Part shown: piece by piece, positions 13,472 through 60,127 of the stretch | How positions within the stretch are numbered: position 1 is the stretch's first letter | How the letters are laid out: each line of letters begins with the position of its first letter | Position numbers and translations under genes: made by a program | The notes under the pieces: model-generated | Databases searched by the model: none | What the model saw: only the letters and a program-made list of their open reading frames with translations | What the model was told of the DNA's origin: nothing | Assembly (NCBI RefSeq): GCF_041245805.1 | Contig: NZ_CP162490.1 | Coordinates: forward strand, 347,336 to 411,335 | DNA: 64,000 bases | DNA from: Xanthomonas tesorieronis | Lineage (GTDB): Bacteria; Pseudomonadota; Gammaproteobacteria; Xanthomonadales; Xanthomonadaceae | Direction: 5' to 3'

Positions 13472-13517
13472 CCTGCAGCCAGGCGTCCATTGCTTGCCGA
13501 TCCCCATGGGAGGGGAG

Positions 13518-13543
13518 AGCCCGGGTTCGCCCGGGCTTTTTTT
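13518..13543 (+). terminator. Rho-independent terminator after aceA
   Basis: GC hairpin AGCCCGGGTTCGCCCGGGCT followed by T7. Confidence 0.7.
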
Positions 13544-13760
13544 GCATGCGCGGTGGCGCGCGTGTCGGCGGCGGTCCTGTGTCTACCAGGTGCGACAGGA
13601 CAGGTGCGGCGTCGCCGTACCGTTCGGCGCCATGCCGATTTCAGGTCCTTTTGCCGTCTCCGCCCGAGCGAGATTGGCTGTGATCCCATCGGCGGCGATG
13701 CGCTCAGATGCTATGCTTTGCGCAAGATGGCGGGCGACGCCAGGAGCAGTAGGGGGCTGG

Positions 13761-14807
13761 ATGAGCTGCGACAGCGCCGCGTCCAATGCACGCGAGACAA
13801 TTCCGACGGTTGCTGTGGTTGCCCCCAAGCCCAATGAGCTGACGGTGCTGACCGCGGCGGAGTTGCGTCTGTTTTCCGAGTTCGGCCGCGCGCGCAGCGT
13901 GCGCGCCGGCGACGTGCTGTTCCGGCGCGGCGACGGCGGCAGCGCCATGTTCGTGATCAGCAGCGGCGTGATCGATCTGGATTTCGGTGAGGACCTGGTC
14001 GTCAAACATCTCGGACACGGCGAATTCTTCGGCGAACTCGGCCTGCTGATCGGCAACCACATGCGCAGCGCCGACGCCATCGCCGCCAGCGACGGAGTGC
14101 TGGTGGAACTGGACCACGACGATTTCCAGCGCCTGGTGGAGCGCGATCCGGGGCTGGTCGCCTACTTCCTGCGCCGTACCATCATGCGCGTGGTGATGAA
14201 CGAACAGACCCTGATCCGCCAGTTGCGCCGCCGCAACCACGACCTGGAAGCGGCGCTGGACAATCTGTACGCCACCACCCACCAGCTCACCCAGACCGAA
14301 GAGCTGGTGCGCACCGACGAGCTGACCGGCCTGCACAACCGCCGCGGGCTGATCCTACGGCTGCAGGAATGCCGCCGCGACGGCCGTTCGCCGGGTCCGG
14401 GCCTGCTGCTGATCGACTGCGACCGCTTCAAGCGCATCAACGACGAGCACGGCCATCTGGTCGGCGACCGCGTGCTGCAGAACGTCGCCAACATCCTGCG
14501 CTCCGTCGCCGGCCAGGACGACATCGCCTGCCGCCTCGGCGGCGACGAATTCTGCCTGCTGGTGTCCACCGGCAACGCCGACGATCTGCGCCGCATCGGC
14601 GAGTTCGTGATCGCCACGGTGCAGAACCTGCTCGGCGTGCCGCACCCGTTGCCGCACATCTGCCCGGTCAGCATCGGCATCAGCCGGGTCGATCCGCAAT
14701 CGGACTGGAACGACTGGTACGCCAATGCCGATGCCGCGCTGTACGAGGCCAAACGTCTCGGTGGCAACCGCTTGTATTGGCACGACCTCGCCTCCGGCTC
14801 GCACTGA
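13761..14807 (+). CDS. cNMP-binding domain plus GGDEF diguanylate cyclase (XC_0249-like)
   Basis: CAP-family cNMP-binding motifs (FGELGLL, RSA) are followed by GGDEF (GLHNRRG, GGDEF). The start at 13761 lies after the aceA terminator; 13698 is an alternative. Confidence 0.8.
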   Translation: MSCDSAASNARETIPTVAVVAPKPNELTVLTAAELRLFSEFGRARSVRAGDVLFRRGDGGSAMFVISSGVIDLDFGEDLVVKHLGHGEFFGELGLLIGNHMRSADAIAASDGVLVELDHDDFQRLVERDPGLVAYFLRRTIMRVVMNEQTLIRQLRRRNHDLEAALDNLYATTHQLTQTEELVRTDELTGLHNRRGLILRLQECRRDGRSPGPGLLLIDCDRFKRINDEHGHLVGDRVLQNVANILRSVAGQDDIACRLGGDEFCLLVSTGNADDLRRIGEFVIATVQNLLGVPHPLPHICPVSIGISRVDPQSDWNDWYANADAALYEAKRLGGNRLYWHDLASGSH

Positions 14808-14833
14808 GCCCACCAAGAACCCTCGAGCTGCCC

Positions 14834-45972: not shown

Positions 45973-46059
45973 GCGCCGATGGTAGCAGCGGCGCCGGCCG
46001 GCTTCAGCGTGGCGTGCCGCGTGCTTCCGGTGTGCGCAAGCCGTCCGGCGCCGCGAAGC

Positions 46060-47088
46060 CTAGCGCTTGACCAGCTCGACCCTGCGGTTTTGCGCCTTGC
46101 CCGCTTCGTTCGCATTGTCGGCTACCGGATCGGCGTCGCCAAACCCGGCAGAAGACAATCTGGAGGCATCGATGCCCTGGGCTGTAATGGCAGCGGCGAC
46201 GGCCTTGGCGCGGCCTTCCGACAGCGTCTTGTTGTGCGCCGGGTCGCCGGTGTTGTCGGTGTAGCCGTTCACGGCCAACTTCAGCGACGCATCCTGCCTG
46301 AGCAACTGCACGACCTGCTCGATCTGCGGCTGCGAGTCCGGCAGGATGTCGGTCTTGTCGGTGGCGAAGTTGACGTGCAATGCCACCTTGCCGGTCTTGT
46401 CGATCTGCGCCTTCAGTTCGCTGGCCGGCAGCACGCTGGCGGTGATTTCCAGCGGCTTGGTTTCGGCGATCAGCAGTCCGCCGCCGAACTGGTAGCTGCA
46501 CAGGTGGATCCAGATGTCGCGATCGGCGCGATGCACGACGAATACCTGCGTGGGATTGTTCCAGACATCGCCCAGGCCGCTGTTGTACTTGACCGCGAAG
46601 TCGCGCGGCCATTCCTTGATTTTCTGCCCGGCCTGCTCGGGAATCTTGCCGTCGAAGATCTTCTTGCCGCCCAGCGAAGCGACCACCGCTTCGATGTTGC
46701 GTTCCAATTCCACGTCCGAGAAGGTCTTGCCTTGCGCGGCATCGATGTGCGCCGACCAGACCTTGCCTTCCACCGTTTCCAGGCGATCGCCTGTCCAGAA
46801 CGGCACCTGGTCGAAATCGGCGAGATCCGGCGTGCTTCCGGTGACGTAGCCGTTGGGAAGGGCGATATACGGGAACGCGCCCAGCGGTACGCTCGACACC
46901 GGCAGGCTGGACGCATCGAAGCCCTTGGCGGCTGCCTCCTGCTGAGGTTGCGACGCCGGCGGACTGCTGGCCGCAGCCGCGGACGCGGCGGCATGCCCGT
47001 CGTTTTGCGCCGGTTGCTGCTGCTTCTTGCAGGCACCAAGACCCAGGGTGATCGCTACAACCAACGTCGCCGCTACTGCCTTTTTCAC
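46060..47088 (-). CDS. OmpA-family lipoprotein
   Basis: Lipobox LGAC after the GTG start (AGGAG 7 nt upstream) and a C-terminal OmpA domain (NGYTDNTGDP…NRRVEL). Confidence 0.8.
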   Translation of the reverse strand: MKKAVAATLVVAITLGLGACKKQQQPAQNDGHAAASAAAASSPPASQPQQEAAAKGFDASSLPVSSVPLGAFPYIALPNGYVTGSTPDLADFDQVPFWTGDRLETVEGKVWSAHIDAAQGKTFSDVELERNIEAVVASLGGKKIFDGKIPEQAGQKIKEWPRDFAVKYNSGLGDVWNNPTQVFVVHRADRDIWIHLCSYQFGGGLLIAETKPLEITASVLPASELKAQIDKTGKVALHVNFATDKTDILPDSQPQIEQVVQLLRQDASLKLAVNGYTDNTGDPAHNKTLSEGRAKAVAAAITAQGIDASRLSSAGFGDADPVADNANEAGKAQNRRVELVKR

Positions 47089-47218
47089 AGAGGTACTCCT
47101 TGCCGGGGGACGAAAAAACAGTGTAGCCGCGAACCCGGCCGATCTTCCTGCGCCACGATGAACACCGATCGATCGACGACGCGAAATGGCACGCGGCGCA
47201 AGCCGCCGGCGCGCGCGA

Positions 47219-47827
47219 CTAGCGGGTCGGCTCGGGCGGCTGGAACAGCGCATCGGGTTGCGGGCGGTATTCCACGCGCTGGATGTCCCACTGCTGCTGT
47301 TGTTGCAGGCCGGTCTTGCCGCGATATGCGAGCACCAGGCCGGTGTCGCGATCCAGCCACATCGTGCCCTGCCGGGTCATGCCGGGGCCGCCCGCATTGG
47401 AAAGCCGGTATCGCCACTGCACCGCGGGCCGGCCGGCATGGACGCCGATATCGGCACGTTGGCAGTCGGCGAACATGCCCAGGCCGGCGCACGGCTGTTC
47501 CGGGTCGAAGCGCAGCGGCCAGCGCATGCCGGGCACCGGCATGCCGTCGCCCTGCTGTCCCACGATCCAGCCAACGGGTGCGTCCTTGGTCAGGATCAAC
47601 GCGTACGGCGTACCGCTGGCGTCCTTGAACTGCACGCGCAGCGCATCGTCGCGGAAATACAGGGTCACCGGCTGCGGCGCGTCCTTGGGGCGGATCCGGC
47701 TCAATCCGCTCAGCTGGTTGGTCGTCACCTCGGCCACGCCGGAGAACGGAAACTCCTCGGCGCGCGTGCTTTGCGCAAGCGCAGGGGAGATCGCGAGCGC
47801 ACATGCCAGCACCGAACGCCAAAGCAT
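47219..47827 (-). CDS. Secreted hypothetical protein (last gene of the Tad-like operon)
   Basis: Signal peptide MLWRSVLACALAISPALA. The start overlaps the upstream stop (TGATG). Confidence 0.5.
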   Translation of the reverse strand: MLWRSVLACALAISPALAQSTRAEEFPFSGVAEVTTNQLSGLSRIRPKDAPQPVTLYFRDDALRVQFKDASGTPYALILTKDAPVGWIVGQQGDGMPVPGMRWPLRFDPEQPCAGLGMFADCQRADIGVHAGRPAVQWRYRLSNAGGPGMTRQGTMWLDRDTGLVLAYRGKTGLQQQQQWDIQRVEYRPQPDALFQPPEPTR

Positions 47828-48501
47828 CACTTGTCCAGATTGCCCTGTTTGTAGATCGGCGATTGCATGCGCACGATCGCATAGCTTTCGATCGGCAAGC
47901 GATTGGTCAGCGGTTGCAGCGTCGAGGATTCGAAGGTGCCTGGCTTGAGGTACTGGGACTTCCCCCCCAGTACCCAGCCAACGAACGGCACTACCAGCGG
48001 CGCGTCGTAGACGACTTTGACTTTCAGGATGTTGGCGTCCTGGACATTGACGCCGCTGCTGCCGACCGCGGTGCTGCGATAGGCGAGCGTATCGTTGGGC
48101 AGGGCGTACTGGCCGTTGTACTGCCGCTCCTTGAAGTTGCCCCATGCCGCGCGCGTCGGGTTGATCACGGTGATGTGCCCGCGCCTGAGCACGTTCAAGT
48201 CCGCATACGCCTTGCCATACGCGACTTCCAATGCGACCTGCCCGGTCTCATTGGAGTAGAGCGGCATCATGCCCTTGGCGAAGCTCCTCTGCATTTCGCC
48301 GCGGTCCACGCCGGTTACCGCGCCTGTGCGCGCGACCATCAGCGCGGCGTAATCGAGCGTCGTCTTCATTCGGTACAACAGCACCGCCTGGATGACCGCC
48401 AGCAGCAGGAACAGCAGGACCGGGGTGATGATCACCAGTTCCACCATGGATTGGCCGCGCATCGAGCGCCGGCTGCGCAATTCCCGCATACGTGTTTTCA
48501 T
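47827..48501 (-). CDS. TadE/TadG-like pilus assembly protein (pseudopilin)
   Basis: N-terminus RGQSMVELVIITPVLLFLLLAV is a TadE-like motif. ATGA overlap with the upstream DUF192 gene. Confidence 0.7.
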   Translation of the reverse strand: MKTRMRELRSRRSMRGQSMVELVIITPVLLFLLLAVIQAVLLYRMKTTLDYAALMVARTGAVTGVDRGEMQRSFAKGMMPLYSNETGQVALEVAYGKAYADLNVLRRGHITVINPTRAAWGNFKERQYNGQYALPNDTLAYRSTAVGSSGVNVQDANILKVKVVYDAPLVVPFVGWVLGGKSQYLKPGTFESSTLQPLTNRLPIESYAIVRMQSPIYKQGNLDK

Positions 48502-48887
48502 GACCATGCTCCGGTGTCGGGCGGCGGCGCGACCGTTGCGGTGCGCCAGCGCCACTGTTCGCCTTGCTGCGGCTGCAGCCGGTCCAGCGCGCCGCCATGG
48601 AATTCGACGGTGGCCACGGCGCGCCGGCAGGCCGCGGCGCGGTACGGCCTGACGTTCTCGCGCCATTCCAGCACGACGTCGTCGCGCGCGAGGAACACCA
48701 GGTCCAACGGGTAGGCCATGCCGATGGTGTGCACACTGGCGCAGGGCCGGATCAACAGGGCTTCCGATCCGTCCTCGGCCAGTGCCGGCCGGGCCAGCAA
48801 GCCGCGCATCCGCGACCACCAGGTGTCGGCGGACCACACGTGCGGGATGGGAGCGCCCCCGCTGCGCTCGATGTGCCCGTGCTTCAC
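48498..48887 (-). CDS. DUF192 domain protein
   Basis: SVHTIGMAYPLDLVFLARDDVV…ENVRPY…VEFHGG is typical of DUF192. The GTG start overlaps the tadC stop (GTGA). MRGLL is an alternative start. Confidence 0.55.
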   Translation of the reverse strand: MKHGHIERSGGAPIPHVWSADTWWSRMRGLLARPALAEDGSEALLIRPCASVHTIGMAYPLDLVFLARDDVVLEWRENVRPYRAAACRRAVATVEFHGGALDRLQPQQGEQWRWRTATVAPPPDTGAWS

Positions 48888-49774
48888 AGGATTCCCTCCT
48901 GCAACATCTTCAAGTAGATGAAGTAGCCCAGGAACAGGAAGATCAGCGGGAAGAAGAACATCACCAGCGGCAGCATCATCTTCACCGGCGCCTCCAGCGC
49001 CAGCTTCTCCGCGCGCAGGAAGCGCTCTTCGCGGCGCTGGTTGGCCTGCGCGCGCAGGGTGTCGCTCAAGTTGGCGCCGACCTTGTCTGCCTGAATCAGC
49101 GCGCTGGTGAAGCTGGTGATCTGGCCGATGTCCATGCGCTCGGCCATGCGCCGCAGCGCTTCGGCCCTGGGAAGTCCGGCACGCAGATCGCGGAGCATGC
49201 GCGAGAACTCCTGCGACAGCGCACCGGCCGGGCCCTTGGCCACGGCCTGCTCGATGCCGCCGGTCACATTCAAGCCGGCTTCCACCGACATGGTGATGAA
49301 ATCCAGGTAGACCGGCAGGTCGCGCACCACTGCCTTCTGCCGCGCCTTGCGGCGTTCGCCCAACCACAGCACGGGGTAGAGCCAACCCAGCACGCCCCCG
49401 AAGAACAGGCACATCAGCCCCGCGCCGACCGCGAGCTTGCCGAGCATCGCCGTGCACAGCAGGAACACCGCGGTCACCACGATCGCGCTGGCCATGCGCA
49501 GGCCGTAGAACTCTTCCGGGGTCAGGGTGAAGTCCTGTCCGGCCGCCTGCAGTTGGCGATGGGTCTGCTCGAGCTGGGTGACGCTGAGGTGCGGCGCGAT
49601 GCGGCGCGTCAGCACCGTCACCAGTGGCCACATCAACTGCATCAGGCGCGGCAGCGGGTCGTAGTAAGTACGGTCCTCCAGCTCGACTTCGCGGATCACC
49701 CCGCGCGTGCCGATGATCACCAGCGCGACGGCGCCGGCAGCCAGAAGAGCGACGAGGGCGAGCATCCAGGTCAT
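48884..49774 (-). CDS. tadC: Flp pilus assembly protein TadC (T2SS-F domain)
   Basis: Type II secretion F-domain membrane protein. ATGA overlap with tadB. Confidence 0.8.
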   Translation of the reverse strand: MTWMLALVALLAAGAVALVIIGTRGVIREVELEDRTYYDPLPRLMQLMWPLVTVLTRRIAPHLSVTQLEQTHRQLQAAGQDFTLTPEEFYGLRMASAIVVTAVFLLCTAMLGKLAVGAGLMCLFFGGVLGWLYPVLWLGERRKARQKAVVRDLPVYLDFITMSVEAGLNVTGGIEQAVAKGPAGALSQEFSRMLRDLRAGLPRAEALRRMAERMDIGQITSFTSALIQADKVGANLSDTLRAQANQRREERFLRAEKLALEAPVKMMLPLVMFFFPLIFLFLGYFIYLKMLQEGIL

Positions 49775-50619
49775 ACGTCGATCGTCATGATCTTCTTGCA
49801 GAGGCGATAGCCCAGATATTCCATGATCAGGCAGATGGTGATCACCACCCATCCGTGCCAGCTGTGGAACATGGGCTGCATGGTTTCGCTGTACATCAGG
49901 CTCAGATAGCCGATCAGGAAGACCGGCAGCATCGCCATGACGATGCCCTGCAACCGGCCTTGCGCGGTCAGCGACTTGACCTTCTTTTCCATGGTCAGGC
50001 GCCGGCGCAGCGTTTCGGCCAGCGTCGCCAGGGTTTCGGCCAGGTTGCCGCCGACCTCGCGCGAGATGTTCACCGCCGACACGAACAGCTCGGCGTCGGT
50101 GATCGGCACCCGCTTGCTGAAGTTTTCCATCGCCTCTTCGGCGCGGATGCCCATGTGCTGCTCACGCAGCACCAGCGCCAGTTCCTGCGCCAGCGGCGGC
50201 TGGCCGTCGTGCACCAGCACTTCCATCGCCGGCGCGAAGCCCACGCCGGCACGCAGGCTGCTGGACAGCATCTGCAACGCATCCGGGAGCTGCTCCTGGA
50301 TCCTCTCCAGCCGCCGCCGGCGCAGATACGCATAGATCTTGCGGGGCGCGAAGATCAGGAAGATGCCGATCAGCACCGCGATGACCAGGCTGCCGGTCAG
50401 CATCCAGATGAGCAGCGGGATGATCACCATCACCACGGCGCTGACCATGTAGACCTGCGCGGGGTCCATGAACAGGAACATGTCCGCCAGGTTCATGCGC
50501 GCCTGGTCCATGAAGCTCTCGCGGTAGCGCTTCATGAACCGCTCGCCGGAACGCGCAACCAGCAGAACGCCCATCAAGGCGCCGCCGAACACCAGCAAGG
50601 CGATCAACCACAGGGCCAT
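49771..50619 (-). CDS. tadB: Flp pilus assembly protein TadB (T2SS-F domain)
   Basis: T2SS-F-domain polytopic membrane protein; 282 aa. Confidence 0.8.
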   Translation of the reverse strand: MALWLIALLVFGGALMGVLLVARSGERFMKRYRESFMDQARMNLADMFLFMDPAQVYMVSAVVMVIIPLLIWMLTGSLVIAVLIGIFLIFAPRKIYAYLRRRRLERIQEQLPDALQMLSSSLRAGVGFAPAMEVLVHDGQPPLAQELALVLREQHMGIRAEEAMENFSKRVPITDAELFVSAVNISREVGGNLAETLATLAETLRRRLTMEKKVKSLTAQGRLQGIVMAMLPVFLIGYLSLMYSETMQPMFHSWHGWVVITICLIMEYLGYRLCKKIMTIDV

Positions 50620-52361
50620 CAGCGCGTACTTCCCTGGTTGCGGAAAATATCCAGATTCACCGGCACGCCGCGTTCGGCCAGCTCCTCGTAGAATTCGGGC
50701 ACCGCGCCGGTCGCCACGAAATTGCCGGCGACCTTGCCGTCCGGTCCGTGGTAGGTGGTCGGCTTGAACAGGAACAGGTCCTGCATCTGGATGGTGCCGC
50801 TTTCGATGCCGGTGATTTCGGTGATGTGGCTGACCTTGCGCGACCCGCAGGGATAGCGGCGCTGATGCACGATGAGGTTGACCGCCGAGGCGATCTGCTC
50901 GCGCACGACCGTCATCGGCAGCTCCATGCCGGCCATCATCACCATCACTTCCAGACGCGACAGCGTTTCGCGCGGATTGTTGGCGTGCGCCGTGGTCAAC
51001 GACCCTTCATGGCCGGTGTTCATGGCCTGCAGCATGTCCAGGCTCTCGCCTCCGCGACACTCGCCGACCACGATCCGGTCGGGGCGCATGCGCAACGCGT
51101 TCTTGACCAGGTCGCGGATGGTGATCTGGCCCTTGCCTTCCATGTTCGCGGGGCGGGCCTCCAATGCGACCAGGTTCGGCTGCACGAGCTTCAGTTCGGC
51201 CGCGTCCTCGATGGTGACGACGCGGTCGCCATCGGGAATGAAGTTCGACAGGATGTTCAACAGCGTGGTCTTGCCCGAGCCGGTACCGCCGGACACCACG
51301 ATGTTGCGGCGCTCGCGCACGGCCATGATCAGGAAGTCCAGCATCGGCTGGTTCAAGGAGCCGTATTTCAACAAGTCTTCGCCCATCAAGCGGCGCGTGG
51401 CGAATTTGCGGATGCTGATGCTCGGCCCGCGCAGGGCCACCGGCGGGATCACCGCGTTCACACGCGAGCCGTCCTTCAGGCGCGCATCGACGAGCGGCGA
51501 GCTTTCGTCGATGCGCCGGCCCAACGGGGTGACGATGCGTTCGATCGCCGCCAGGCAGGCGCGTTCGTTGGAGAACACCACCTCCGACTTCTGGATGCGC
51601 CCGGCCCGCTCGATGAAGATATCGTCGTGGGCATTGACCATGATTTCGGTGACGGTCGGATCCTCGATCAGATCTTCCAGCGGCCCCAGACCGATGGCTT
51701 CGTCCAGCACCTGTTTGGCCAGGCGGCGCGGATTGATGTCAGAGGGCAGGTCGGCGAACTCGCGCGCGAGGATGTCGTCGATCAGATTGATGGTGCTGTC
51801 GCGAAGCGCGCTGTCGTCCATGCTGCGCACGTCCATCCGGCGCAGGTCCATTTGCCGGACCAGCGCCATGTGCAGCTTGGTGCGCCAGGTGGCGATATCC
51901 GGCGGTGGCGGGCCGGCCAGCACCAAGTCGGTGGACGCCGGCGCGGCCGCCTGGGCTGCGGACGCCGCGTCGGCCGACGTCGTTGCAGGTTCGGCTACAC
52001 GCGCGGCGATGCCATCGTTGGCTGCCGGGGTGTGCTTGGCGATCCGCGCATCGTCGCCACTGACCTTGAGCACGTAGTGTCCGATGCGGATCTCGTCCTT
52101 GCCGTCGATCGGACCCTGCTTGGCCAGGACGACCTTGCCGTTGAGCGTGATCGGCTCGCGCCCGCCCAAGGGCAGGATGAAGACACCCTCGTCTTCGCGC
52201 AGCAGCGTGGCATGCTTGCCGGCGATATTCCAGCCCTGGAGCATTACCAGGTTCGCGTCGGCGCGCCCGATGCCGCACTCCCGATGCATGCATTTGACCT
52301 GGCGAGTATCGCGGCCCGGCGTATTGATCAGCACTGTGAACATGACGATGACCTTCCGCAC
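50619..52361 (-). CDS. CpaF/TadA-type pilus assembly ATPase with an N-terminal FHA domain
   Basis: FHA motifs (GIGRADANLV, KHATLL, NGKVV, GDEIRIG) occupy the first ~100 aa. These are followed by a CpaF ATPase (GGTGSGKTT Walker A, with Asp and His boxes); 580 aa. Confidence 0.85.
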   Translation of the reverse strand: MRKVIVMFTVLINTPGRDTRQVKCMHRECGIGRADANLVMLQGWNIAGKHATLLREDEGVFILPLGGREPITLNGKVVLAKQGPIDGKDEIRIGHYVLKVSGDDARIAKHTPAANDGIAARVAEPATTSADAASAAQAAAPASTDLVLAGPPPPDIATWRTKLHMALVRQMDLRRMDVRSMDDSALRDSTINLIDDILAREFADLPSDINPRRLAKQVLDEAIGLGPLEDLIEDPTVTEIMVNAHDDIFIERAGRIQKSEVVFSNERACLAAIERIVTPLGRRIDESSPLVDARLKDGSRVNAVIPPVALRGPSISIRKFATRRLMGEDLLKYGSLNQPMLDFLIMAVRERRNIVVSGGTGSGKTTLLNILSNFIPDGDRVVTIEDAAELKLVQPNLVALEARPANMEGKGQITIRDLVKNALRMRPDRIVVGECRGGESLDMLQAMNTGHEGSLTTAHANNPRETLSRLEVMVMMAGMELPMTVVREQIASAVNLIVHQRRYPCGSRKVSHITEITGIESGTIQMQDLFLFKPTTYHGPDGKVAGNFVATGAVPEFYEELAERGVPVNLDIFRNQGSTR

Positions 52362-52374
52362 TACGTGGGGTGGA

Positions 52375-53955
52375 TTACTTGATCAACTTTTCCTGCCTGG
52401 GGCTGATCTCGTCCTGCAGGCCCTTTTCCATCGCGTCGCCGCGCTGCAGGTCCTGCAGATTCTCCGGCGAGGTCGGACTGACGATGCGCGGGGTCACGAA
52501 GATCACCAGTTCGGTCTTGTTGCCGCGAAACCCGTCGGAGCGGAACAGCTTGCCCAGGATCGGGATGTCGCCGAGGATCGGCAGCTTGTCCACGGCTTTG
52601 GAGGCCTCGCGGTCGAGCAGGCCGGAGATGACGATGGTCTGGCCGGCGTTGACGTTGATTTCGGTCTCGGCACGCCGCGTCAGGAAGCCCGGCACGCCCT
52701 GCACCGACACCGAAGGATCGATCCTGCTGACCTCCGCCATGATCGAGGTGTTCACCTGATTGGAAGAGTTGACCGTCGGGTTGATGTTGAGGCGGATGCC
52801 GTATTCCTTGTATTCGATCTGGGTCTGCCCTAGCACCGACGGCACCACGATCGGCACTTCGCCGCCGACCAGGAACGAGGCGCTGCTGCCGCTCTTGGCG
52901 CTGAGTTTCGGCTGGGCCAGCACCCACGCCTTGCCACGGCTCATCAGCAGGTTGATCTGCGAGCCGATGGTGGTGGCGATGCCGAAGTAGCCCTGCGGTC
53001 CGGGCAGCTTGGTGGGCAATGTGTCCTTGACGTCCTGAAACGTCTGGTTGTTCTCGGGAAGCACGCGGAAGTAGCCGTTGCTGGTGACATCGCGGATCAA
53101 TCCGCCGATCGGACCGTCGATCGTGGTGTCCCAACGGATACCCAGGTCTTCCACCGCGTTCTTGTTGAACTCCATGATGGAAACGTCCATCTGGATCATC
53201 GGCCGCATGCCGACCGGATCGGCGCCGGCAAAGTTCAGGACCTGCGGATAGAGCTTCTGCAATGCCTGGATCTTTGCGGTGGTGGCCGCATCGATGTCGT
53301 TGCCCGAGATGACGACATTGGAGCCGATCGCCCGCACGGTGACCCCAGGCGTATTGCCCAGCAGCTCGCGCACGGTCTCGGCCACGCCTTCCGACTTGCC
53401 GCCCGTCACCGTCACGCTGACGTCGCGCTGGCTGCCGTCCGCCATCCACAGATGCACATTGGTGTCGCCGGGTTTGGTGCCGATCATGACCAGTTCGGAC
53501 TTGCCGACCGAGAACACGCTGAGCACTTCGCCATCGCCGACCGCGATGCGGCGCAGGGCGCCGTGCACGCGGCGAACCACGGCCTCGCCCGCATAGACGG
53601 TTTGGGCAGGCTGCAACGGCGGCGCCACGGACGGCTTCTTGTCGCCAGCCAGGGCGACGCCGCCCGAGGCTGTACCCGCTCCCAGTTCCTGGATCTGCGA
53701 TTCGGCCGCACGCTTGAGCTGGTCGACCTGGCGACCTTGCGCGATCAACCGCGCCTGTTCGGCCGCCGCCTCGTCCGACGGTGCGCCGGCGGCGGGTGCC
53801 GCTGCAGGATGCGCGGTCTTTGCCGTGGCTGGTGTGGCGGCCTGCTGGGCCGACGCATTGAGGCCTCCAATTCCCGCCAACAGGAGGCCGGCCAGCCACG
53901 CCGCCGATCTACCTGCCTTGTTTCCGCTACGTCCTGTTGCTTGCCTCATGCTCAA
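52375..53955 (-). CDS. cpaC: CpaC/RcpA-type secretin
   Basis: C-terminal secretin domain (LVGGEVPIVV…VNVNAGQTIVISGLL…TELVIFVTPRIV) and a signal peptide. Confidence 0.85.
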   Translation of the reverse strand: MSMRQATGRSGNKAGRSAAWLAGLLLAGIGGLNASAQQAATPATAKTAHPAAAPAAGAPSDEAAAEQARLIAQGRQVDQLKRAAESQIQELGAGTASGGVALAGDKKPSVAPPLQPAQTVYAGEAVVRRVHGALRRIAVGDGEVLSVFSVGKSELVMIGTKPGDTNVHLWMADGSQRDVSVTVTGGKSEGVAETVRELLGNTPGVTVRAIGSNVVISGNDIDAATTAKIQALQKLYPQVLNFAGADPVGMRPMIQMDVSIMEFNKNAVEDLGIRWDTTIDGPIGGLIRDVTSNGYFRVLPENNQTFQDVKDTLPTKLPGPQGYFGIATTIGSQINLLMSRGKAWVLAQPKLSAKSGSSASFLVGGEVPIVVPSVLGQTQIEYKEYGIRLNINPTVNSSNQVNTSIMAEVSRIDPSVSVQGVPGFLTRRAETEINVNAGQTIVISGLLDREASKAVDKLPILGDIPILGKLFRSDGFRGNKTELVIFVTPRIVSPTSPENLQDLQRGDAMEKGLQDEISPRQEKLIK

Positions 53956-54785
53956 CCCTTTCCGCCAATGATGAACTCAACGCGGCTGCTTCCGGTGCCG
54001 GTGCTTTCCGGATCGCCCGATCCCAGCGATCGCAGTAATTGACTCTCGCTCATGCCTGTCGCCGCGCCGGGCGAGGTGTCCTGAAGTTCGCGCAGCAGTA
54101 CACGCACTGCGCCCACCTTCGAGGCCATGGCCAACTGCTTGGCCTGGTACTGGTCCAGTTCCAGGGTGACGCTGGAGAATCCGGCCGATTCGTTCGACTC
54201 CTCTCCCTCCTTCGGCGTCGGCACATCGCCGATCCGGCTGCCGGCGGCCAGGACCTTGATCTTCTGCAGCAGCGGAAATACCTGGGCGCCGCTGCCCGAA
54301 CCGGGGGCGCCGCTGGTGGAGGCATCCTTCACGAAGAAGATGTCGATGAGGTCGCCCGGGGCGATCATGCCGGAGATCGAGTTGTTCTCGTCCACGCTCA
54401 TCGTGTAGGCGACCTTGCCCTTGGGAATCAGCCGGGAGAACTGTTCGTACAAGGGCACCAGCGCGCTGGCGCTCAGCGGTGCGCCGCCACGGGCCGGAGC
54501 GCGCAGCATGCGGCCTTCGTACTGGCCGTGGTTTTCCGGCGTGACCGCATCGGCAGGCGCGAATTCGGCAGGAATCGGCCGCGATGCCAGATCGCTGCCC
54601 TGCAGGATCGCGCCCTGCGGCAGGTCATTCACCGGCACGGCCACCTCGACCATGGGCCGCGTGTCCTGGGTGCGCTCGGCGACGGTGTTGCGGATGTAGC
54701 TCACTGCGATGAAGGCGGCGAAAGCCGCCATCACCACGGCGATCAGGATGAACAGGACGTTCTTGCTGAGTTTTGGTTTCTGCAT
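53952..54785 (-). CDS. cpaB: CpaB/RcpC Flp pilus assembly protein
   Basis: N-terminal TM anchor, then SAF/CpaB domains. ATGA overlap with cpaC. Confidence 0.8.
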   Translation of the reverse strand: MQKPKLSKNVLFILIAVVMAAFAAFIAVSYIRNTVAERTQDTRPMVEVAVPVNDLPQGAILQGSDLASRPIPAEFAPADAVTPENHGQYEGRMLRAPARGGAPLSASALVPLYEQFSRLIPKGKVAYTMSVDENNSISGMIAPGDLIDIFFVKDASTSGAPGSGSGAQVFPLLQKIKVLAAGSRIGDVPTPKEGEESNESAGFSSVTLELDQYQAKQLAMASKVGAVRVLLRELQDTSPGAATGMSESQLLRSLGSGDPESTGTGSSRVEFIIGGKG

Positions 54786-54827
54786 GAAGAGTTGCCGTCG
54801 AGGCAGGCCGTGGCGAGGGAATGGAGG

Positions 54828-55022
54828 TCAACCCACCAGGATGTCGGACGCCGAGATGGCGTAGACAAAGGCGGCATAGAGGTCTTTCAGGGCGGTGACC
54901 ACGTCGGTGATCACGTTCGGGTTGGCGATCAACACGATCACCAGCGCCATCACCACCACGGTGTATTCGATCGTGGATTGACCGCGTTGGGTGCGCTTGC
55001 GGGGCATGGCGGCGCGGATCAT
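54828..55022 (-). CDS. Small Flp-motif protein (64 aa, candidate minor pilin or pseudopilin)
   Basis: QRG/QSTIEYTVVVMALVIV matches the G-x4-EY Flp/TadE processing motif followed by a hydrophobic helix. ATGA overlap with the upstream gene. Confidence 0.5.
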   Translation of the reverse strand: MIRAAMPRKRTQRGQSTIEYTVVVMALVIVLIANPNVITDVVTALKDLYAAFVYAISASDILVG

Positions 55023-55711
55023 TCGACCACCGCCACGACCACGGTGCCGGTCTTGCCGCGGCTGGACGTCACCGTCACGCGGTCTTCCTGGCGGATGAAG
55101 CGGCCGACGCAATGCGGACTGGTCGCCGCGCAGGCCGACGAGGAGCCATCCCGCACGTAGCCTTGCGCTGCGAAGTAGCGGGTGTAGTACTGCTGATTCT
55201 GCAGCGGCGTATAGCGGTTGAGCATGCTCAAGGTCCTGACATGGCGCGGCGTGTCCATGTAGACGATGTCTTCGGCGACCTGCGTATCCGGCAGCCGTCC
55301 GAAGCCCTTGCCGACGCCGTCCGCCGGCAGGTCTTTCTTCGGCAGCTGCATGACGCCGATCTGGCCGCGCGTGCTGGTGGCGTCTCCGCTCAATTCGACA
55401 GTGACGTAATAGCCGCCTGCTTCCATGTGGCCGAGCACGGTCTTGTTGCCCATGGGAGTGGCCACGACCCCCTTGCCCCATTCCTGTCGATAGAACTGTT
55501 CCACCTGACGCGGCGGTGCGGCCACGGTGAAACGGCTGGCGCGCATCGAAACGCCGTTGTAGACCATGTGCTCGGACACGATCTCGCCGGAGGCCTGATC
55601 CGGCACAGGCACATCCGGCCAATCCGCAGCGCGTGCAGGGTGGGCGGCGAGCCCCAACAGGACCGGGCCCACCATCTGCGCGAGCAGGCGGCTGGAAGGT
55701 CGCCCGCTCAT
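55019..55711 (-). CDS. Secreted hypothetical protein (Tad locus)
   Basis: Signal peptide (LLAQMVGPVLLGLAAHPARAA). Coupled by ATGA overlaps on both sides. Confidence 0.5.
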   Translation of the reverse strand: MSGRPSSRLLAQMVGPVLLGLAAHPARAADWPDVPVPDQASGEIVSEHMVYNGVSMRASRFTVAAPPRQVEQFYRQEWGKGVVATPMGNKTVLGHMEAGGYYVTVELSGDATSTRGQIGVMQLPKKDLPADGVGKGFGRLPDTQVAEDIVYMDTPRHVRTLSMLNRYTPLQNQQYYTRYFAAQGYVRDGSSSACAATSPHCVGRFIRQEDRVTVTSSRGKTGTVVVAVVE

Positions 55712-56529
55712 TGCTTGACCGGGTAATTGGCCAGCTTGTCCGCGGGGACGACATCCGGCTCGATCGTGCCGATTTCCAGATCGCCGAGCGATCCCACCAT
55801 CGGCATGATCGGCTCCAGCACCTTCAGGGTGTCGAAGATGCCGTCCAGCCCTTCGAAATACGACAGCGGCGCCAACGGCTTCACGGTGCTGACCACGCTG
55901 CGCGGTCCGCTGCGTGGGCCGGACGCATTCCAGGCATCCGCCAGCAGGGTCTGGTGGCGTTTGTCGACCAGGTTGAGGCTGTCCAGCGGCTCCAGGAAAT
56001 GCGCCGGCCGGCCATCGGCGGTCTTCAGGTCGCGGTAGTTCAGCGATACTTCTGCGCTGACGTAGCCCTTCCGATTGGGCGGGAAGGCATTGTCGAAATA
56101 ATTTTTCGGCAACAGCGTCGCCGCTTCGTCGACGTAGCCGGGTGAATTGGCGTTGGCGGTCCGCGTGATCGACAGGTCGTTCTTTTCCAGCAACTTCCTG
56201 TTCGAAAACGTATTGAGCATCTGGTCGCCGAACGCACCGCTGCTGTTGCCGGAGGTGGCCGATTTGATCGGCGCATCGGCATCGGCGAAATTGCGGTCGA
56301 GCGCCTTGCTCTGCAATGCGCCCCGGCTGGGCGGCTGGTAGTTGTTGGCTACCGTGGCTTCCCAGGCGGCATTGCGCGCGGCCTGCATTGCCATCTGCTT
56401 GCCGTGCCCGAGCTTGGCCACGACCGGGATCAGCAGAAAGAGCGGGACCAGCACGGCGGCGCAAACGGCCAGTTCCACCATGCCTTGCCCGCGCATGCTG
56501 CGCGGCGACGCAACGGACATCGTTTTCAT
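55708..56529 (-). CDS. TadE/TadG-like pseudopilin
   Basis: MRGQGMVELAVCAAVLVPLFLLIPVV is a TadE-like N-terminus; 273 aa. Confidence 0.65.
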   Translation of the reverse strand: MKTMSVASPRSMRGQGMVELAVCAAVLVPLFLLIPVVAKLGHGKQMAMQAARNAAWEATVANNYQPPSRGALQSKALDRNFADADAPIKSATSGNSSGAFGDQMLNTFSNRKLLEKNDLSITRTANANSPGYVDEAATLLPKNYFDNAFPPNRKGYVSAEVSLNYRDLKTADGRPAHFLEPLDSLNLVDKRHQTLLADAWNASGPRSGPRSVVSTVKPLAPLSYFEGLDGIFDTLKVLEPIMPMVGSLGDLEIGTIEPDVVPADKLANYPVKQ

Positions 56530-57332
56530 CCTGCCTGCTCCTTGCCCGTCACCTCGCCGGCGGGGTCCTCGGGAAGCAGCCCCTTGCCGAGGCTGAACGA
56601 CTTGACCTGCAGCAGGCAGCCATTCCCGCCTTGCAGCGGCTTGGCTTCCAGCGGAATGGAATTCAGGTAGCTGCCCGCGCTGTCCACCGTGCAACCCGCC
56701 ACGTCGGCCGGCGCCTCGCCGAACCCCCACTTCATGCCGCCGGACCACATGCAGACCTCCTGCTGACCGTTTTGCCAGCGTGTGCACGGCTGGCCCTTGA
56801 TCTGGCCCTCGCCCATGAGCTTCCAGCCGGTGCCCTGTACGTCCTGGCGTTCCTGGGAACGTGCGCCGCTGTCGATCGCCTGGTACATGCCGGTCGCGTC
56901 TTCGATCGCGTCGTGGTCCTCGTGTTGCTCAAGCTTGGCGAGGCAGGCGCTTCGCCCGTCTTCGCCATCGGCGCCAAGCGTCCAGCTGACCTGATGCGCG
57001 AACTGGCGCCGCGCGTCGATCATGATCTCGACTTCGCCGGTCCCCAGCTTGGCTTCTTCCTGCGGCGATAGCGCGCGCATCGGCATGCCGGAGCCGCTGC
57101 AGGCGTCCATCTTGGCGTGATAGTTCTTGCGCTCCATGTTCTCGCCGCCCAGGCGCGATTCCCAGGCCAGAACGACATGCAGCGCGGGCAGTGACTTGGC
57201 GCCGTCGTCGGATGCCGAGGCGTCCGTCAGGCCGCCTTCGGCTGCATCGCGCGAATGGCAGCCGCCGGTGAAGGCAAGCAACGCAACGCAGCCTGCGGCC
57301 AGGACGCGGAATCTTTGTTCGAACAACATCAT
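56526..57332 (-). CDS. Hypothetical lipoprotein (Tad locus)
   Basis: Lipobox-like AFTGGC after the ATG at 57332. ATGA overlaps with neighbours on both sides. Confidence 0.5.
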   Translation of the reverse strand: MMLFEQRFRVLAAGCVALLAFTGGCHSRDAAEGGLTDASASDDGAKSLPALHVVLAWESRLGGENMERKNYHAKMDACSGSGMPMRALSPQEEAKLGTGEVEIMIDARRQFAHQVSWTLGADGEDGRSACLAKLEQHEDHDAIEDATGMYQAIDSGARSQERQDVQGTGWKLMGEGQIKGQPCTRWQNGQQEVCMWSGGMKWGFGEAPADVAGCTVDSAGSYLNSIPLEAKPLQGGNGCLLQVKSFSLGKGLLPEDPAGEVTGKEQAG

Positions 57333-58771
57333 GGAGCGGCCACCAAAAGAGTGCGATCCGCCACTGGCGTCTGCACCAGGCGGGCCTGCCAATACGGACT
57401 GAACAAACTGCCCTTTTCGAATTTCCCGTCGCCTTTGCCCCAGACCGAACGCCGGAAGGCGGCCAGTTCATAAGGGCGGTTGAAATAGACCTGCGCGCTG
57501 GCCATCGCGCGCAACTGGTTTCCGCGCGCCTCGTCCTTCAGTTCCATGCGGCCACGCCCGATCTTCAGCGTGGAACTGGTGCGCGCCTTTTCGATCTTGG
57601 TACCCACCTCGACCGTGTAGATCGGCCCGGCATTGGCGCCTTCGGGGGTCTGCGAATAGGTGCTCTTGACATCGTGATACTGCGGGCTGATGCCATAGCG
57701 GTAGCCGTTGAAGAAGGCCTTGTCGCGCTTGAAGTCCTCCCTGACGGCTGGATCGGCTTCGATGAACCGGCCGGCGATGTCGCTGCGCTTGGTGCCGTTG
57801 TAGGCCTTGTAGGTCCGGTTGTCGTACGGCGATTTCCATCCACGCCCGTTATTCATCCCGCCGAAGAAATTCGGCTTGCGGCCATCGACGGCCTGGGTGC
57901 CGCCCCAGCCGAGCGGAATCTTGACGTCGTCGAGCGGCCAGGGAAGCGGCAGCTTGAACTGAAATGCATCCACGGCCGACCAGCGATCGTATTCGACCAT
58001 GTCCGTGCCGCCGTTGTTGTTGAACACCCCGAAGGCCGTGCCGTCGCGGGCTCGCGTAAAGGTGTCGCGCGATGCCATGACCACGTTGCGGTAGCGCTCG
58101 CCGCCGGGATTGGTGCTGGTCAGGCCTTTACGCTGGCCGGGGCTGTAGCGTTCCAGCTGGTTGCCCGCCGAGACCACGTTCTTGGCCAGCACGCCCTTGC
58201 CGACCAGGGTCAGCTCCGCATCCGGTGCGTTGTCCTTGACCACCTTGTTGGCGAGGAGGAAGACGTTGGCTTCCGAAGCGAGCGTGCCGACCGCCGCGTC
58301 CGCCGCGAGCGCATACGGGTGATCCAGCACCTGGTCCAGTACGCGGATTTCGCCGTTCGCCACTTCCATGAAGCCTTGCCGGAAGACCTTCAGCGCCTTG
58401 TTGATCGCGGTCATGGCGCGGTCGAGTGCGATCAGCACCTCGCCCAGGCCGGGCACCCAGAACAACAAGGTTTCGGCGACCTTGGTGAATTCCCCGAAAT
58501 GCACGGAGGTGGAGTGCACCATGGTCAGCCACGAATTCAGACTGACCGTTTGCGCGATCGCCACTTCGTTGGCGACGCGTCCGCGGTTCAAGTAAGCGGC
58601 GAAGTTGCGCGCGCGTGCCTGCTCGACCGCAATGCTGTACGCAGCGGCATCGGCGGCATTGGTGATTTCCACCTTCTTGCCGACGACCTGTCCGGTGTTG
58701 AAGGTCACCAACAGGCCGACGCACAGCACCATCAAGAATGCCAGCACCATCGGCATCGACTGCCCCGACAT
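57329..58771 (-). CDS. TadG-like large pilus assembly protein or pseudopilin
   Basis: N-terminus SGQSMPMVLAFLMVLCVGLLV is a TadE/G-like motif; about 480 aa with a VWA-like body. Confidence 0.65.
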   Translation of the reverse strand: MSGQSMPMVLAFLMVLCVGLLVTFNTGQVVGKKVEITNAADAAAYSIAVEQARARNFAAYLNRGRVANEVAIAQTVSLNSWLTMVHSTSVHFGEFTKVAETLLFWVPGLGEVLIALDRAMTAINKALKVFRQGFMEVANGEIRVLDQVLDHPYALAADAAVGTLASEANVFLLANKVVKDNAPDAELTLVGKGVLAKNVVSAGNQLERYSPGQRKGLTSTNPGGERYRNVVMASRDTFTRARDGTAFGVFNNNGGTDMVEYDRWSAVDAFQFKLPLPWPLDDVKIPLGWGGTQAVDGRKPNFFGGMNNGRGWKSPYDNRTYKAYNGTKRSDIAGRFIEADPAVREDFKRDKAFFNGYRYGISPQYHDVKSTYSQTPEGANAGPIYTVEVGTKIEKARTSSTLKIGRGRMELKDEARGNQLRAMASAQVYFNRPYELAAFRRSVWGKGDGKFEKGSLFSPYWQARLVQTPVADRTLLVAAP

Positions 58772-58963
58772 GTCGGAACGGACGCGTCCCAGCCGTGGCG
58801 TAACGCCCCTGGTAGACGGATCGGCGGCGGCGATGATCCCCATCTGGTGTCCTTCCGGAAAAACGCCGTGCGAAGAACGCCATGGATGCGTTCAGCTCGG
58901 CTGGGTCCATTTAGAGGTGTTTGAAAAAACGCCGAGGCGTGCCCACGGCGGTGACGACGACAG

Positions 58964-58995
58964 GCCACCATCTGCCCGGCCGGGCAGATGGTGGC
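58964..58995 (-). terminator. Perfect 16-bp stem hairpin immediately downstream of the flp pilin gene (candidate attenuator)
   Basis: GCCACCATCTGCCCGG paired with CCGGGCAGATGGTGGC, with no clear U-tract. Confidence 0.4.
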
Positions 58996-59002
58996 GAAGG
59001 CC

Positions 59003-59281
59003 TTACTTGTTGCCGTTGTACGCGGCCATGCCCTTGTCCTTGTCGGCCTGACTCTGCGCCTTGCCGGCGTTGGTACCGGCGCGGTTGATCATCTGGCTAG
59101 CGTCCTGCTTGCCAGACAGCTCCTGCGCCATGCCGGCGACCTGGCTGCGGACGGTGCCGCCGAAGAAGGTAAACACGCCGATGGCGGCGATCGCGATCAG
59201 GGCCACGATGATGATGTACTCGGTCATGCCCTGGCCGAGCTGCTTACGGCCGAAACGAATATGCCTGCGTTGGTTCTTCAT
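59003..59281 (-). CDS. flp: Flp-family type IVb pilin (92 aa, with a C-terminal extension)
   Basis: GQGMTEYIIIVALIAIAAIGVF matches the G-x4-EY Flp motif. AAGGAGAGG RBS. First gene of the locus. Confidence 0.75.
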   Translation of the reverse strand: MKNQRRHIRFGRKQLGQGMTEYIIIVALIAIAAIGVFTFFGGTVRSQVAGMAQELSGKQDASQMINRAGTNAGKAQSQADKDKGMAAYNGNK

Positions 59282-59770
59282 TGAATCCTCTCCTTGGCTC
59301 TGGCGCCCACTGGACCGGCAGCACACTTACGTCCGCGCGGCGCGTGTAGGCGTGTGGGTTGCATACGTGAAAAGTGCACAGATTATGAAACTGATCCTTG
59401 GCCCGCATTTGACATCGGCTGACAAATGTATCTCGGACGGCGCCACTTTAGCGTCAACAAATTGCCGGAACAAGAAAACTAGCGTTAATGTTTTGACACA
59501 TTGTGGAATGCATATCCCGGAACTGAGTCAAACTCTAGGCGCACCGTTCTATGAATTGATTCACTCTGTGCTGATTCCGGGATGCCGGGATGCAGAGTCG
59601 ATTTAAAAGCGCGTCGCGTTCGACGTCGCGAGTTCTTGACTAAACAAAACAGCCGGCCGGTTTTTATTTTTTATGAATAGGGAATCCAAGCCGGATTCAC
59701 CGAGATCGGCTGGATAAATCTTGCGTAATAATAGGGATAAATATCCCAAAATTTAGCGGTCTGCCAAAAG
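59282..59770 (-). promoter_or_regulatory. AT-rich promoter/leader region of the flp-tad operon
   Basis: About 490 bp of non-coding DNA with much lower GC than the flanks and several TTGACA-like hexamers. Confidence 0.3.
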
Positions 59771-60127
59771 GGCGATTGCCATGTGCATCACCGCTCGCCG
59801 CCGCCTGCGACGCGGCGGGCCTAAATGCCAACGTCGTATCGGCCAGCGAGCATAGGGCCGCCGCTAGCGCGGCATTGGCGCTAAGGAAATGGAGCGTTGT
59901 CGGACGCACGCTACGGCCGCCACGAGGTCGCTACGAGGGAGCGTGGGCATTGCAACTGCGCCTCCGGCACCAGCGGATGTTTTGCCGACGCCGGCGATGC
60001 CTTGCGCCGAGCGCGTTCAAGCGGCTCCCGCCGCCAGCCGTCTCGCTGCTTGCGAGGCAGGACTTGTCTTGGATCTTGATGTGCAGCCCGCTGCATGCGG
60101 GCTGCACACGTCAGAGCAGCGCTCCGA

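Follow-up and report, generated by a model that had tools for sequence, protein, structure and literature searches.

Within a 64,000-nucleotide stretch of the Xanthomonas tesorieronis genome (contig NZ_CP162490.1, positions 347,336 to 411,335 of the forward strand; hereafter the window, whose own numbering we use) we describe a minus-strand operon that very probably builds a Tad/Flp (type IVc) pilus of the FHA-linker-CpaF lineage, an adhesive fibre in a variant that is uncharacterised. By homology, CpaC is predicted to be the outer-membrane secretin, CpaB/RcpC the periplasmic alignment ring, TadB and TadC the inner-membrane platform and Flp the major pilin, with CpaF as the putative hexameric ATPase driving extension and probably retraction. 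The output would be an adhesive, possibly retractile pilus used in surface or plant colonisation and in biofilm formation. We regard the locus as having this ordinary function in a variant lineage, and not as a new kind of machine.

The genes were mapped by a frame plot of third-position GC content (GC3) combined with stop-to-stop open reading frames (ORFs) and start codons, because the high GC content of the window fills mechanical ORF lists with shadow frames. The results show an unbroken run of minus-strand genes from 59281 down to 46060, consisting of 15 genes whose ORFs are all full length, with high GC3 and sizes like those of their orthologues (Table 1). Public gene calls on the same DNA (L081, L082) match this map. 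An earlier note on this DNA, made from the letters and a list of ORFs, had recognised the Tad/Flp type and given a gene order with domain types; these agree with our gene mapping, with Pfam and with the public calls. Pfam annotation of the ORFs, the check which that note had named, identifies Tad/TadG, TadE (twice), RcpC/CpaB, Secretin with T2SS-T3SS_pil_N, FHA with T2SSE, T2SSF (twice), DUF192 and OmpA. On the other hand, the note had counted 16 genes where we map 15, and had extended the locus to 59770 with flp near 59.7 kb, whereas flp begins at 59281 and the DNA from 59282 to 59770 is non-coding. The ORF at 59697-59909, considered as a candidate flp, was rejected, as it and the other small ORFs between 59.3 and 59.9 kb carry neither a coding signal nor an Flp motif.

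Comparison of gene order with canonical Tad/Flp loci (Aggregatibacter flp-tad-rcp, Caulobacter pilA-cpa, Pseudomonas aeruginosa flp-rcp-tad) and with the Kil locus of Myxococcus upholds the Tad/Flp type IVc assignment, the likeness to Kil being partial. Shared with the canonical systems are an Flp protein with the G/XXXXEY motif, a second small Flp, two TadE-like proteins, TadG, RcpC/CpaB, an RcpA/CpaC secretin with its N-terminal pilus domain, the CpaF/TadA core and a split TadB/TadC pair with one T2SSF domain each. What the canonical systems have and this locus does not is TadZ/CpaE, TadV/CpaA/FppA and the TPR pilotin TadD; RcpB is not recognised here. Beyond the canonical set, the locus has an FHA domain and linker on its ATPase, a DUF192 protein, the periplasmic protein sec1, an OmpA-family lipoprotein, and minor pilins that flank the core.

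A class III signal is present in five proteins (the arrow marks the cleavage site): Flp (G↓QGMTEY), Flp2 (G↓QSTIEY), TadE1 (G↓QGMVEL), TadE2 (G↓QSMVEL) and TadG (G↓QSMPMV), giving the common motif G↓Q(G/S)(M/T)xE/M. In Flp the leader MKNQRRHIRFGRKQLG is followed by the mature N-terminus QGMTEYIIIV, and its motif in full, G↓QGMTEYIIIVALIAIAAIG, compares with G↓QSTIEYTVVV in Flp2. Among the related loci described below, flp is the first gene in about 55, at 44-90% identity and at times in two or three tandem copies, while flp2 is kept at its position in most. The TadG site lies at G27↓Q28, both residues being nearly invariant among 44 homologues, and the protein has no Glu5, a residue also missing from tip subunits such as GspK. 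A structural model of TadG (pLDDT 84.8) has at its N-terminus a helix some 100 residues long, then a helical bundle and, at the C-terminus, a head rich in beta structure; structure comparison of this head returned no solved-structure neighbour, and sequence searches of the PDB with TadG and sec1 gave no match. The tadE1 and tadE2 families align over their N-terminal domain with an hhalign probability of 93.6%. Five proteins with a class III signal correspond to the canonical set of flp-1, flp-2, tadE, tadF and tadG, so that the excess of large pseudopilin-like genes supposed by the earlier note is not borne out; the difference lies in their placement on both sides of the core. We propose that TadG, TadE1 and TadE2 would form a priming or tip complex, and that Flp2 would act as an adapter pilin between filament and tip complex, by analogy with KilK/KilO (PMC12075869). 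In that study TadE/TadF/TadG are modelled as a tip complex and small Flp proteins as adapters, S. maltophilia included.

Two components of the textbook machine are absent. Neither Pfam on the 15 locus proteins nor the public annotation gives a match to Peptidase_A24 or to a ParA/CbiA-type ATPase. A six-frame scan of the whole window found no ParA-type Walker A and no credible A24 motif (G.GD.K), the lone matching string lying inside the TadG C-terminus. A hydrophobicity scan of 46.0-60.2 kb in any frame returned TadB, TadC and the flanking ABC-2 permease as the only polytopic membrane ORFs, and Pfam on 30 further window genes detected neither TadZ nor an A24 peptidase. The intergenic gaps of the locus are too short for a hidden gene, and a hidden TadZ or TadV was rejected on the motif scans (extended to 80 related loci), the hydrophobicity scan and the Pfam searches together. 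The earlier note had pointed to the missing TadZ/CpaE between secretin and ATPase and to the missing TadV/CpaA; both absences hold for the locus and for the window, and re-annotation brought neither gene to light.

In current models TadZ acts at the start of assembly and each system has its own TadV peptidase. Both departures nevertheless have precedents: the TFF models allow tadV as a "loner", and a prepilin peptidase may be encoded away from the system it serves and act for more than one (PMC6668835). In Bdellovibrio, which has no TadV, PilD processes Flp1. The shared G↓Q motif of the five pilin-like proteins and the lack of an A24 peptidase in the locus point to cleavage by a peptidase encoded elsewhere, which would most likely be the housekeeping PilD/XpsO. 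In Xanthomonas, this enzyme serves type IVa pili and type II secretion.

The absences are a property of the lineage. We ran a one-genome-per-species scan with the FHA-CpaF protein, which yielded 80 loci, and mapped 16 window proteins onto them by tblastn. The conserved order is flp, tadG, a variable gene, tadE1, sec1, flp2, cpaB, cpaC, FHA-cpaF, tadB, tadC, DUF192, in some loci a TPR lipoprotein gene, and tadE2, and about 60 loci across several proteobacterial orders show this same order with no space for tadZ. In 67 of 70 loci no more than 109 bp separate cpaC from cpaF, and in the other three the distance does not exceed 664 bp, which leaves no room for a tadZ gene. In a scan of the 80 loci the tad clusters yielded no ParA Walker A, the two weak matches (L021 and L034) lying outside them, and no credible A24 motif in the proteobacterial loci, where the few pattern matches fall inside TadG, cpaC, sec1 or antisense ORFs. 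The Myxococcales locus L068 alone has GWGDVKL, in an upstream ORF of 189 aa next to its secretin. Precomputed Pfam tags for a distant locus (L085) list Tad, RcpC, Secretin, FHA with T2SSE, T2SSF twice, DUF192, TPR and TadE, with no A24 or ParA.

Within the Xanthomonadaceae, the locus is found in X. translucens (93% CpaF identity), Pseudoxanthomonas, Stenotrophomonas including S. maltophilia, Solilutibacter and Marilutibacter/Luteimonas; hosts at about 50% identity are Pseudomonas, Rheinheimera, Arenicella, Allohahella, Comamonas, Xenophilus, Accumulibacter, Alcaligenaceae, Acidithiobacillus, Desulfuromonas and Desulfocapsa. As the same architecture recurs in about 60 loci, this is a conserved Tad lineage and not a one-off, and the retention of a TadZ- and TadV-less content across orders at 45-93% identity argues for purifying selection on a working system. 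The description of the locus as a stripped and remodelled oddity does not survive this comparison: the orthologous loci are not canonical but likewise without tadZ and tadV. The precomputed tags also include PF27713 "UCP018868" on CpaF and, faintly, PF27226 "AF_1845" on sec1 homologues (L081/L085).

The motor ATPase is of the published class III CpaF type. Pfam places FHA and T2SSE in one protein, as the earlier note had claimed for a fused motor. The core (residues 152-556) matches Caulobacter CpaF structures at 1.8e-104, the T2SSE domain PF00437 starts at residue 218 (9.8e-62), and the catalytic motifs are intact, with the Walker A GGTGSGKT, the motifs IVVGE and TGHEG, and the Asp-box and His-box all present. 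The FHA domain occupies approximately residues 1-95 (window 52059-52343), with PF00498 over residues 25-88, and is joined to the core by an Ala/Pro-rich linker (approximately residues 95-150) that is unconserved among orthologues. Yen et al. 2025 (Nat Commun) distinguish three CpaF architectures, class III consisting of an FHA domain at the N-terminus, then a disordered linker and the core, and being "mostly found in betaproteobacteria" (PMC12019362). The class III example from Achromobacter xylosoxidans (E3HIW0) has the same ATPase domain architecture as the protein studied here, linker disorder being the published trait of the class, and the Alcaligenaceae loci L070 and L071 have the same cpaB-cpaC-FHAcpaF-tadB-tadC-DUF192 core.

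In canonical FHA domains, such as Rad53 FHA1, the phosphate is contacted by the Ser of the SxxH motif and by a Thr preceding a conserved Asn. The window protein keeps Arg27, His44 and Asn68, but the Ser is replaced by Ala41 and the Thr by Leu67. To place these changes in the lineage we counted the pocket residues in an alignment of the 73 members with the N-terminus present: at the Ser position 65 have Ala or Gly and one has Ser, at the Thr position all 73 have Val, Leu or Ile, and Arg/Lys, His and Asn are retained. Of the 73, 66 share a Trp three residues ahead of the Ser position. The Myxococcales relative L068, on the other hand, retains the Ser and STNGT. The domain also matches PF16697 (Yop-YscD_cpl), the FHA-like cytoplasmic domain of the type III secretion protein YscD. 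A Ser/Thr kinase or phosphatase partner was considered and rejected: Pfam found none among the 30 other window genes, and there was none among ten genes sampled near five related tad clusters, which encode unrelated proteins (SDR, sugar transferase, lysozyme, cyclase, OmpA).

The loss of Ser and Thr, the YscD-like match and the absence of a linked kinase or phosphatase suggest that the FHA domain acts as a phosphorylation-independent docking module, like the FHA-like domain of YscD. TadZ has been described as a recruiting hub, and we propose that the FHA domain would take its place by bringing the motor to the platform or holding it there. A more ambitious reading, which we put forward tentatively and hold to be less probable than its negation, is that the lineage constitutes a distinct Tad subtype in which the TadZ hub is replaced by phosphorylation-independent FHA docking, possibly together with DUF192, and in which pilin maturation is left wholly to the housekeeping PilD.

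The organisation of the genes agrees with a single transcription unit for most of the locus. With tadG taken to start at 58843 and tadE2 at 48501, in agreement with the public call L082, nine of the 14 junctions overlap. Seven are ATGA or GTGA overlaps (tadG/lipoprotein, lipoprotein/tadE1, tadE1/sec1, sec1/flp2, tadB/tadC, tadC/DUF192 and DUF192/tadE2) and two are TGATG overlaps (cpaF/tadB and tadE2/sec2). An alternative tadE2 start exists at 48507; the start at 48501 is the one that overlaps DUF192 by ATGA and agrees with L082. The remaining five junctions have gaps of 159, 42, 2, 31 and 130 bp, the 31-bp gap being that between cpaC and cpaF. The earlier statement that nearly every junction overlaps in a single operon is thus right for the nine overlaps and too strong for these five. 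The 130-bp spacer between sec2 and the OmpA-family gene contains a terminator-like hairpin, although its overall fold is not above that of shuffled sequences (z = 0.09). Given this hairpin-bearing spacer, the OmpA-family gene is tied to the locus by synteny and not by translational coupling. The intact operon is the run from 59281 down to 47219, with the OmpA-family gene associated; its tentative inclusion in the operon by the earlier note is sustained as regards synteny, and not as regards coupling.

Table 1 Genes of the Tad/Flp locus, in transcriptional order, with window coordinates and supporting evidence.
Gene	Product	Length (aa)	Position	Strand	Evidence
flp	major Flp pilin (predicted)	92	59003-59281	-	GC3 0.86; G/XXXXEY motif
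tadG-like	large minor pilin (predicted)	504	57329-58843	-	Tad/TadG PF13400
lipoprotein	lipoprotein, lipobox LAFTGG↓C	268	56526-57332	-	ATGA overlap at both ends
tadE1	TadE-like minor pilin (predicted)	273	55708-56529	-	PF07811, 22.3 bits, cut-off 22.9 (1.4e-4)
sec1	periplasmic protein (predicted)	230	55019-55711	-	signal peptide
flp2	Flp-like minor pilin (predicted)	64	54828-55022	-	cleavage motif G↓QSTIEY
cpaB/rcpC	periplasmic alignment-ring protein (predicted)	277	53952-54785	-	PF16976 RcpC 2.2e-23; SAF
cpaC/rcpA	outer-membrane secretin (predicted)	524	52375-53949	-	PF00263 3.1e-43; PF13629 2.6e-12
FHA-linker-cpaF	motor ATPase (predicted)	574	50619-52343	-	PF00498, PF16697, PF00437
tadB	inner-membrane platform (predicted)	282	49771-50619	-	PF00482 3.3e-17
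tadC	inner-membrane platform (predicted)	296	48884-49774	-	PF00482 3.2e-18
DUF192	DUF192 protein	129	48498-48887	-	PF02643 3.6e-12
tadE2	TadE-like minor pilin (predicted)	224	47827-48501	-	PF07811 5e-10
sec2	secreted protein (predicted)	202	47219-47827	-	signal peptide
ompA-family	OmpA-family lipoprotein	342	46060-47088	-	PF00691 1.3e-19

Two non-coding regions were examined. Upstream of flp, a relatively AT-rich spacer of 846 bp (59282-60127, GC about 0.5) extends to the ABC-2 permease gene, and its first part, about 490 bp (59282-59770), has no coding signal (GC3 about 0.5). The approximately 170 bp next to flp (59282-59450) align almost base for base with X. translucens (L009), the remaining spacer being unalignable, and this conserved stretch is likely to hold the promoter and leader of flp. 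It contains a TGTCA-N5-TGTCA direct repeat and a TGTGC-N5-TCACG element, which could be regulator sites. The lone sigma-70-like site (59767-59740) is within shuffle expectation and lies outside the conserved stretch, and an Rfam scan of 45-61 kb returned a chance IRES match only. The flp-tadG spacer (58844-59002, minus strand) encodes three GC-rich hairpins, two of them followed by U-tracts, and its RNA folds at -70.5 kcal/mol (z = -4.0), with none of 200 shuffles folding as well. Hairpins after the pilin gene are the usual arrangement by which more transcript is made of the pilin than of the machinery. The spacer is probably a partial terminator or attenuator, or an mRNA stabiliser, that sets a high pilin-to-machinery ratio, and its hairpins would give an excess of pilin transcript.

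The genes on either side have housekeeping functions: upstream are those for an ABC-2 transporter pair and a ferredoxin reductase, downstream panE, tatD and hrpB. The GC content of the locus (window 46001-60000) is 0.61-0.65, against 0.68-0.71 in the flanking DNA. This lower value and the restriction of the S. maltophilia orthologue to one genogroup fit an old accessory island, yet the adjacency to panE is kept in several genera.

Among the accessory proteins, the DUF192 gene directly follows tadC in 63 of 64 loci. Because it has no signal peptide, and no N-terminal hydrophobic segment in any of the 14 orthologues inspected, the protein is presumably cytoplasmic in this lineage and a fixed part of it. 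The OmpA-family gene has an orthologue (46-53% identity) always beside the locus, on a side that varies by genus. It can be found downstream of sec2, upstream of flp, in the flp-tadG interval or behind tadE2; besides the window gene, examples are L013 1744-2799, L038 226-1485, L041 2331-3185 and L030 14993-15901. This constant company argues for a functional link between OmpA and Tad despite the missing translational coupling, and the lipoprotein would probably anchor the machine to peptidoglycan.

A TPR lipoprotein of about 150-190 aa, probably the TadD pilotin, is encoded between DUF192 and tadE2 in many members of the lineage (L020-L024, L028, L030, L040, L049 and L085), the deeper branches included; the loci of Marilutibacter, Pseudomonas, Rheinheimera and Desulfuromonas have it at that place. 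The Xanthomonas, Stenotrophomonas and Pseudoxanthomonas group does not have it, and there DUF192 directly overlaps tadE2 (window 48498-48507).

The operon also contains three signal-peptide proteins without an assigned function, sec1, sec2 and the lipoprotein. Neither BLASTP nor hhalign relates them to one another, so paralogy was rejected. The protein sec1 has two Mog1/PsbP/DcrB-like alpha/beta domains in a fold that resembles DcrB and PA1624, and its profile finds 817 representatives at 50% clustering. The two distant homologues looked up belong to the same locus type, L085 on a long contig and the other on contigs of about 3 kb or less. We regard sec1 as a marker of the lineage and a fixed accessory part. 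Orthologues of the lipoprotein and of sec2 were found in Xanthomonadaceae loci only. The lipoprotein has no Pfam or NCBIfam match and sec2 no Pfam match; their orthologues in S. maltophilia D457 are annotated as DUF4412, whereas Pfam DUF4412 is not detected in either protein even at E = 5.

These three proteins are what would recommend the locus as a secretion device, in which a short Flp pseudopilus pushes sec1, sec2, the lipoprotein or other substrates through the secretin in the manner of a type II secretion system. Tad systems do belong to the same superfamily as type II secretion systems. However, sec1 is lineage-wide, sits at a fixed place between minor-pilin genes and has a scaffold-like two-domain fold, which fits a structural part better than cargo, while sec2 and the lipoprotein are restricted to one family. 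To our knowledge no Tad system secretes soluble cargo, and we found nothing specific in favour of this proposal, which we judge improbable.

The earlier note had linked the locus to the Kil apparatus of Myxococcus xanthus, so that the machine would serve contact-dependent killing of neighbouring bacteria and not adhesion. Kil is likewise Tad-derived, with an FHA-ATPase fusion, no TadZ, small Flp adapters and a minor-pilin tip complex: its ATPase KilF likewise bears an FHA domain at the N-terminus, and the system runs on "a single ATPase", with no TadZ (PMC8460266). In addition, the Myxococcales ATPases (L068, L069) are 58% identical to the CpaF core, and the TadG head, having no known fold, could in principle recognise cells. 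The hallmarks by which Kil differs are nevertheless missing here. In Kil, FHA domains occur in several proteins, the secretin is short and has no N domain, TadG is lacking, a peptidase of its own (KilA) is encoded, the genes form two clusters, the FHA Ser is canonical and there is a link to predation. Here a single FHA domain is present, degenerate where the Myxococcales relative keeps Ser and STNGT; the secretin has a normal length (524 aa) and the N domain PF13629, TadG is encoded, an A24 peptidase is not, and the genes form one operon. Moreover, the tip genes of Kil occur in Myxococcota only, the lineage has non-predatory hosts (Stenotrophomonas, Pseudomonas, Acidithiobacillus, Comamonas, Desulfuromonas), and neither in the locus nor next to it are there genes for toxins or immunity proteins. 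Of the proposed link only the fusion of FHA to the ATPase and the absence of TadZ remain, and a killing function is very unlikely.

Equally remote is the view that the locus is a decaying or inactive remnant in which no pilus is possible without TadZ, TadV and TadD: three textbook components are indeed missing, the locus is accessory in S. maltophilia (genogroup C only) and its GC is slightly under that of the flanks (0.65 vs 0.68-0.71), but 15 of 15 ORFs are full length with a strong GC3 coding signal, the tight start/stop overlaps and catalytic motifs are preserved, and the same content is kept across orders at 45-93% identity.

The adhesive pilus of the FHA-linker-CpaF lineage has its own points of weakness, and these weigh against it as follows. 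The pilus, its expression and the processing of its pilins are predicted from genes alone, and the Pfam Flp_Fap match to flp is weak (E 0.0056, under the gathering cut-off). The FHA domain most plausibly replaces TadZ, and this rests on correlation. A dedicated TadV, TadZ or a second canonical tad locus may lie elsewhere in the genome, and a second tad cluster is indeed present in S. maltophilia strains. DUF192 is not specific to the lineage, being found as well in a Firmicute tad operon that starts with its own tadV gene. The apparent loss of the TPR lipoprotein in Xanthomonas, Stenotrophomonas and Pseudoxanthomonas leaves secretin targeting without a candidate TadD pilotin.

With respect to previous work, the class III motor type, the Stenotrophomonas orthologue and precedents for both missing genes have already been published. 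The genes SMD_0948-0960 of S. maltophilia D457 have been catalogued by comparative genomics only, as a genogroup C-specific "alternative Flp/Tad pilus" (PMC7283896). They form the orthologous operon, matching our gene list one for one, DUF192 included. Its annotated order opens with a DUF4412 protein, TadE/G, DUF192 and TadC, runs on to CpaB, the Flp pilin and a hypothetical protein, and closes with a DUF4412 lipoprotein, a TadE/G-like protein and a pilus assembly protein; the catalogue contains no functional work and no comment on the missing TadZ and TadV. The S. maltophilia locus L013 has 73% CpaF identity and full synteny with the window locus, the OmpA-family gene lying upstream of flp in Stenotrophomonas and downstream of sec2 here. 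The class III CpaF paper classifies the ATPase only, and does not describe the loss of tadZ and tadV, DUF192, sec1, the degenerate pocket or the spread into Gamma- and Deltaproteobacteria. The Tad system of Bdellovibrio bacteriovorus resembles ours in having no dedicated TadV and in joining the hub function to the ATPase as a TadZ-TadA fusion, but it keeps the fused TadZ module and has dispersed loci, while this lineage has a compact operon and no TadZ module. Searches of the literature turned up no functional work on this lineage, on a Tad pilus of Xanthomonas or on DUF192. Compared with the literature found, what is new is the lineage-wide lack of tadZ and tadV, the degenerate FHA pocket, the fixed cytoplasmic DUF192 and two-domain sec1, and the loss of the TPR pilotin in Xanthomonas and its closest relatives.

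Elsewhere in the window, an 876-aa ORF (14801-17431, plus strand) with no Pfam match at 1e-5 appears to have a nucleotidyl-cyclase-like N-terminus, a membrane segment and a TPR-like C-terminus. It adjoins a gene for a cyclic-nucleotide (cNMP)-binding GGDEF diguanylate cyclase (13494-14807, plus strand). Cyclase or cNMP-binding genes flank related Tad loci too (L028 15424-17523; L085 995-3091 and 19022-19951), which may reflect a cyclic-nucleotide regulatory link to the Tad loci or a coincidence. The window further contains an IS110-family transposase gene (DEDD_Tnp_IS110 and Transposase_20; 1662-2633, minus strand) between peptidase M3 and signal peptidase genes, and adjacent malate synthase and isocitrate lyase genes of the glyoxylate shunt (10364-13471, plus strand) with a divergent LysR regulator (9335-10303).

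Many pathogens use Tad pili to adhere, to form biofilms and to colonise their hosts. The lineage described here spans plant-associated Xanthomonas, clinical Stenotrophomonas, Pseudomonas, Acidithiobacillus and sulfate and metal reducers, and has neither TadZ nor TadV in its loci, making it a practical system for the study of TadZ-free motor recruitment and of the role of DUF192. If the FHA/DUF192 subtype proved true, it would be a natural TadZ-free model for the recruitment of the motor to the platform and would give DUF192 its first assigned role. For Xanthomonas, the operon presents a candidate adhesion factor of the early-branching species group that includes X. translucens, X. sacchari and X. 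sontii.

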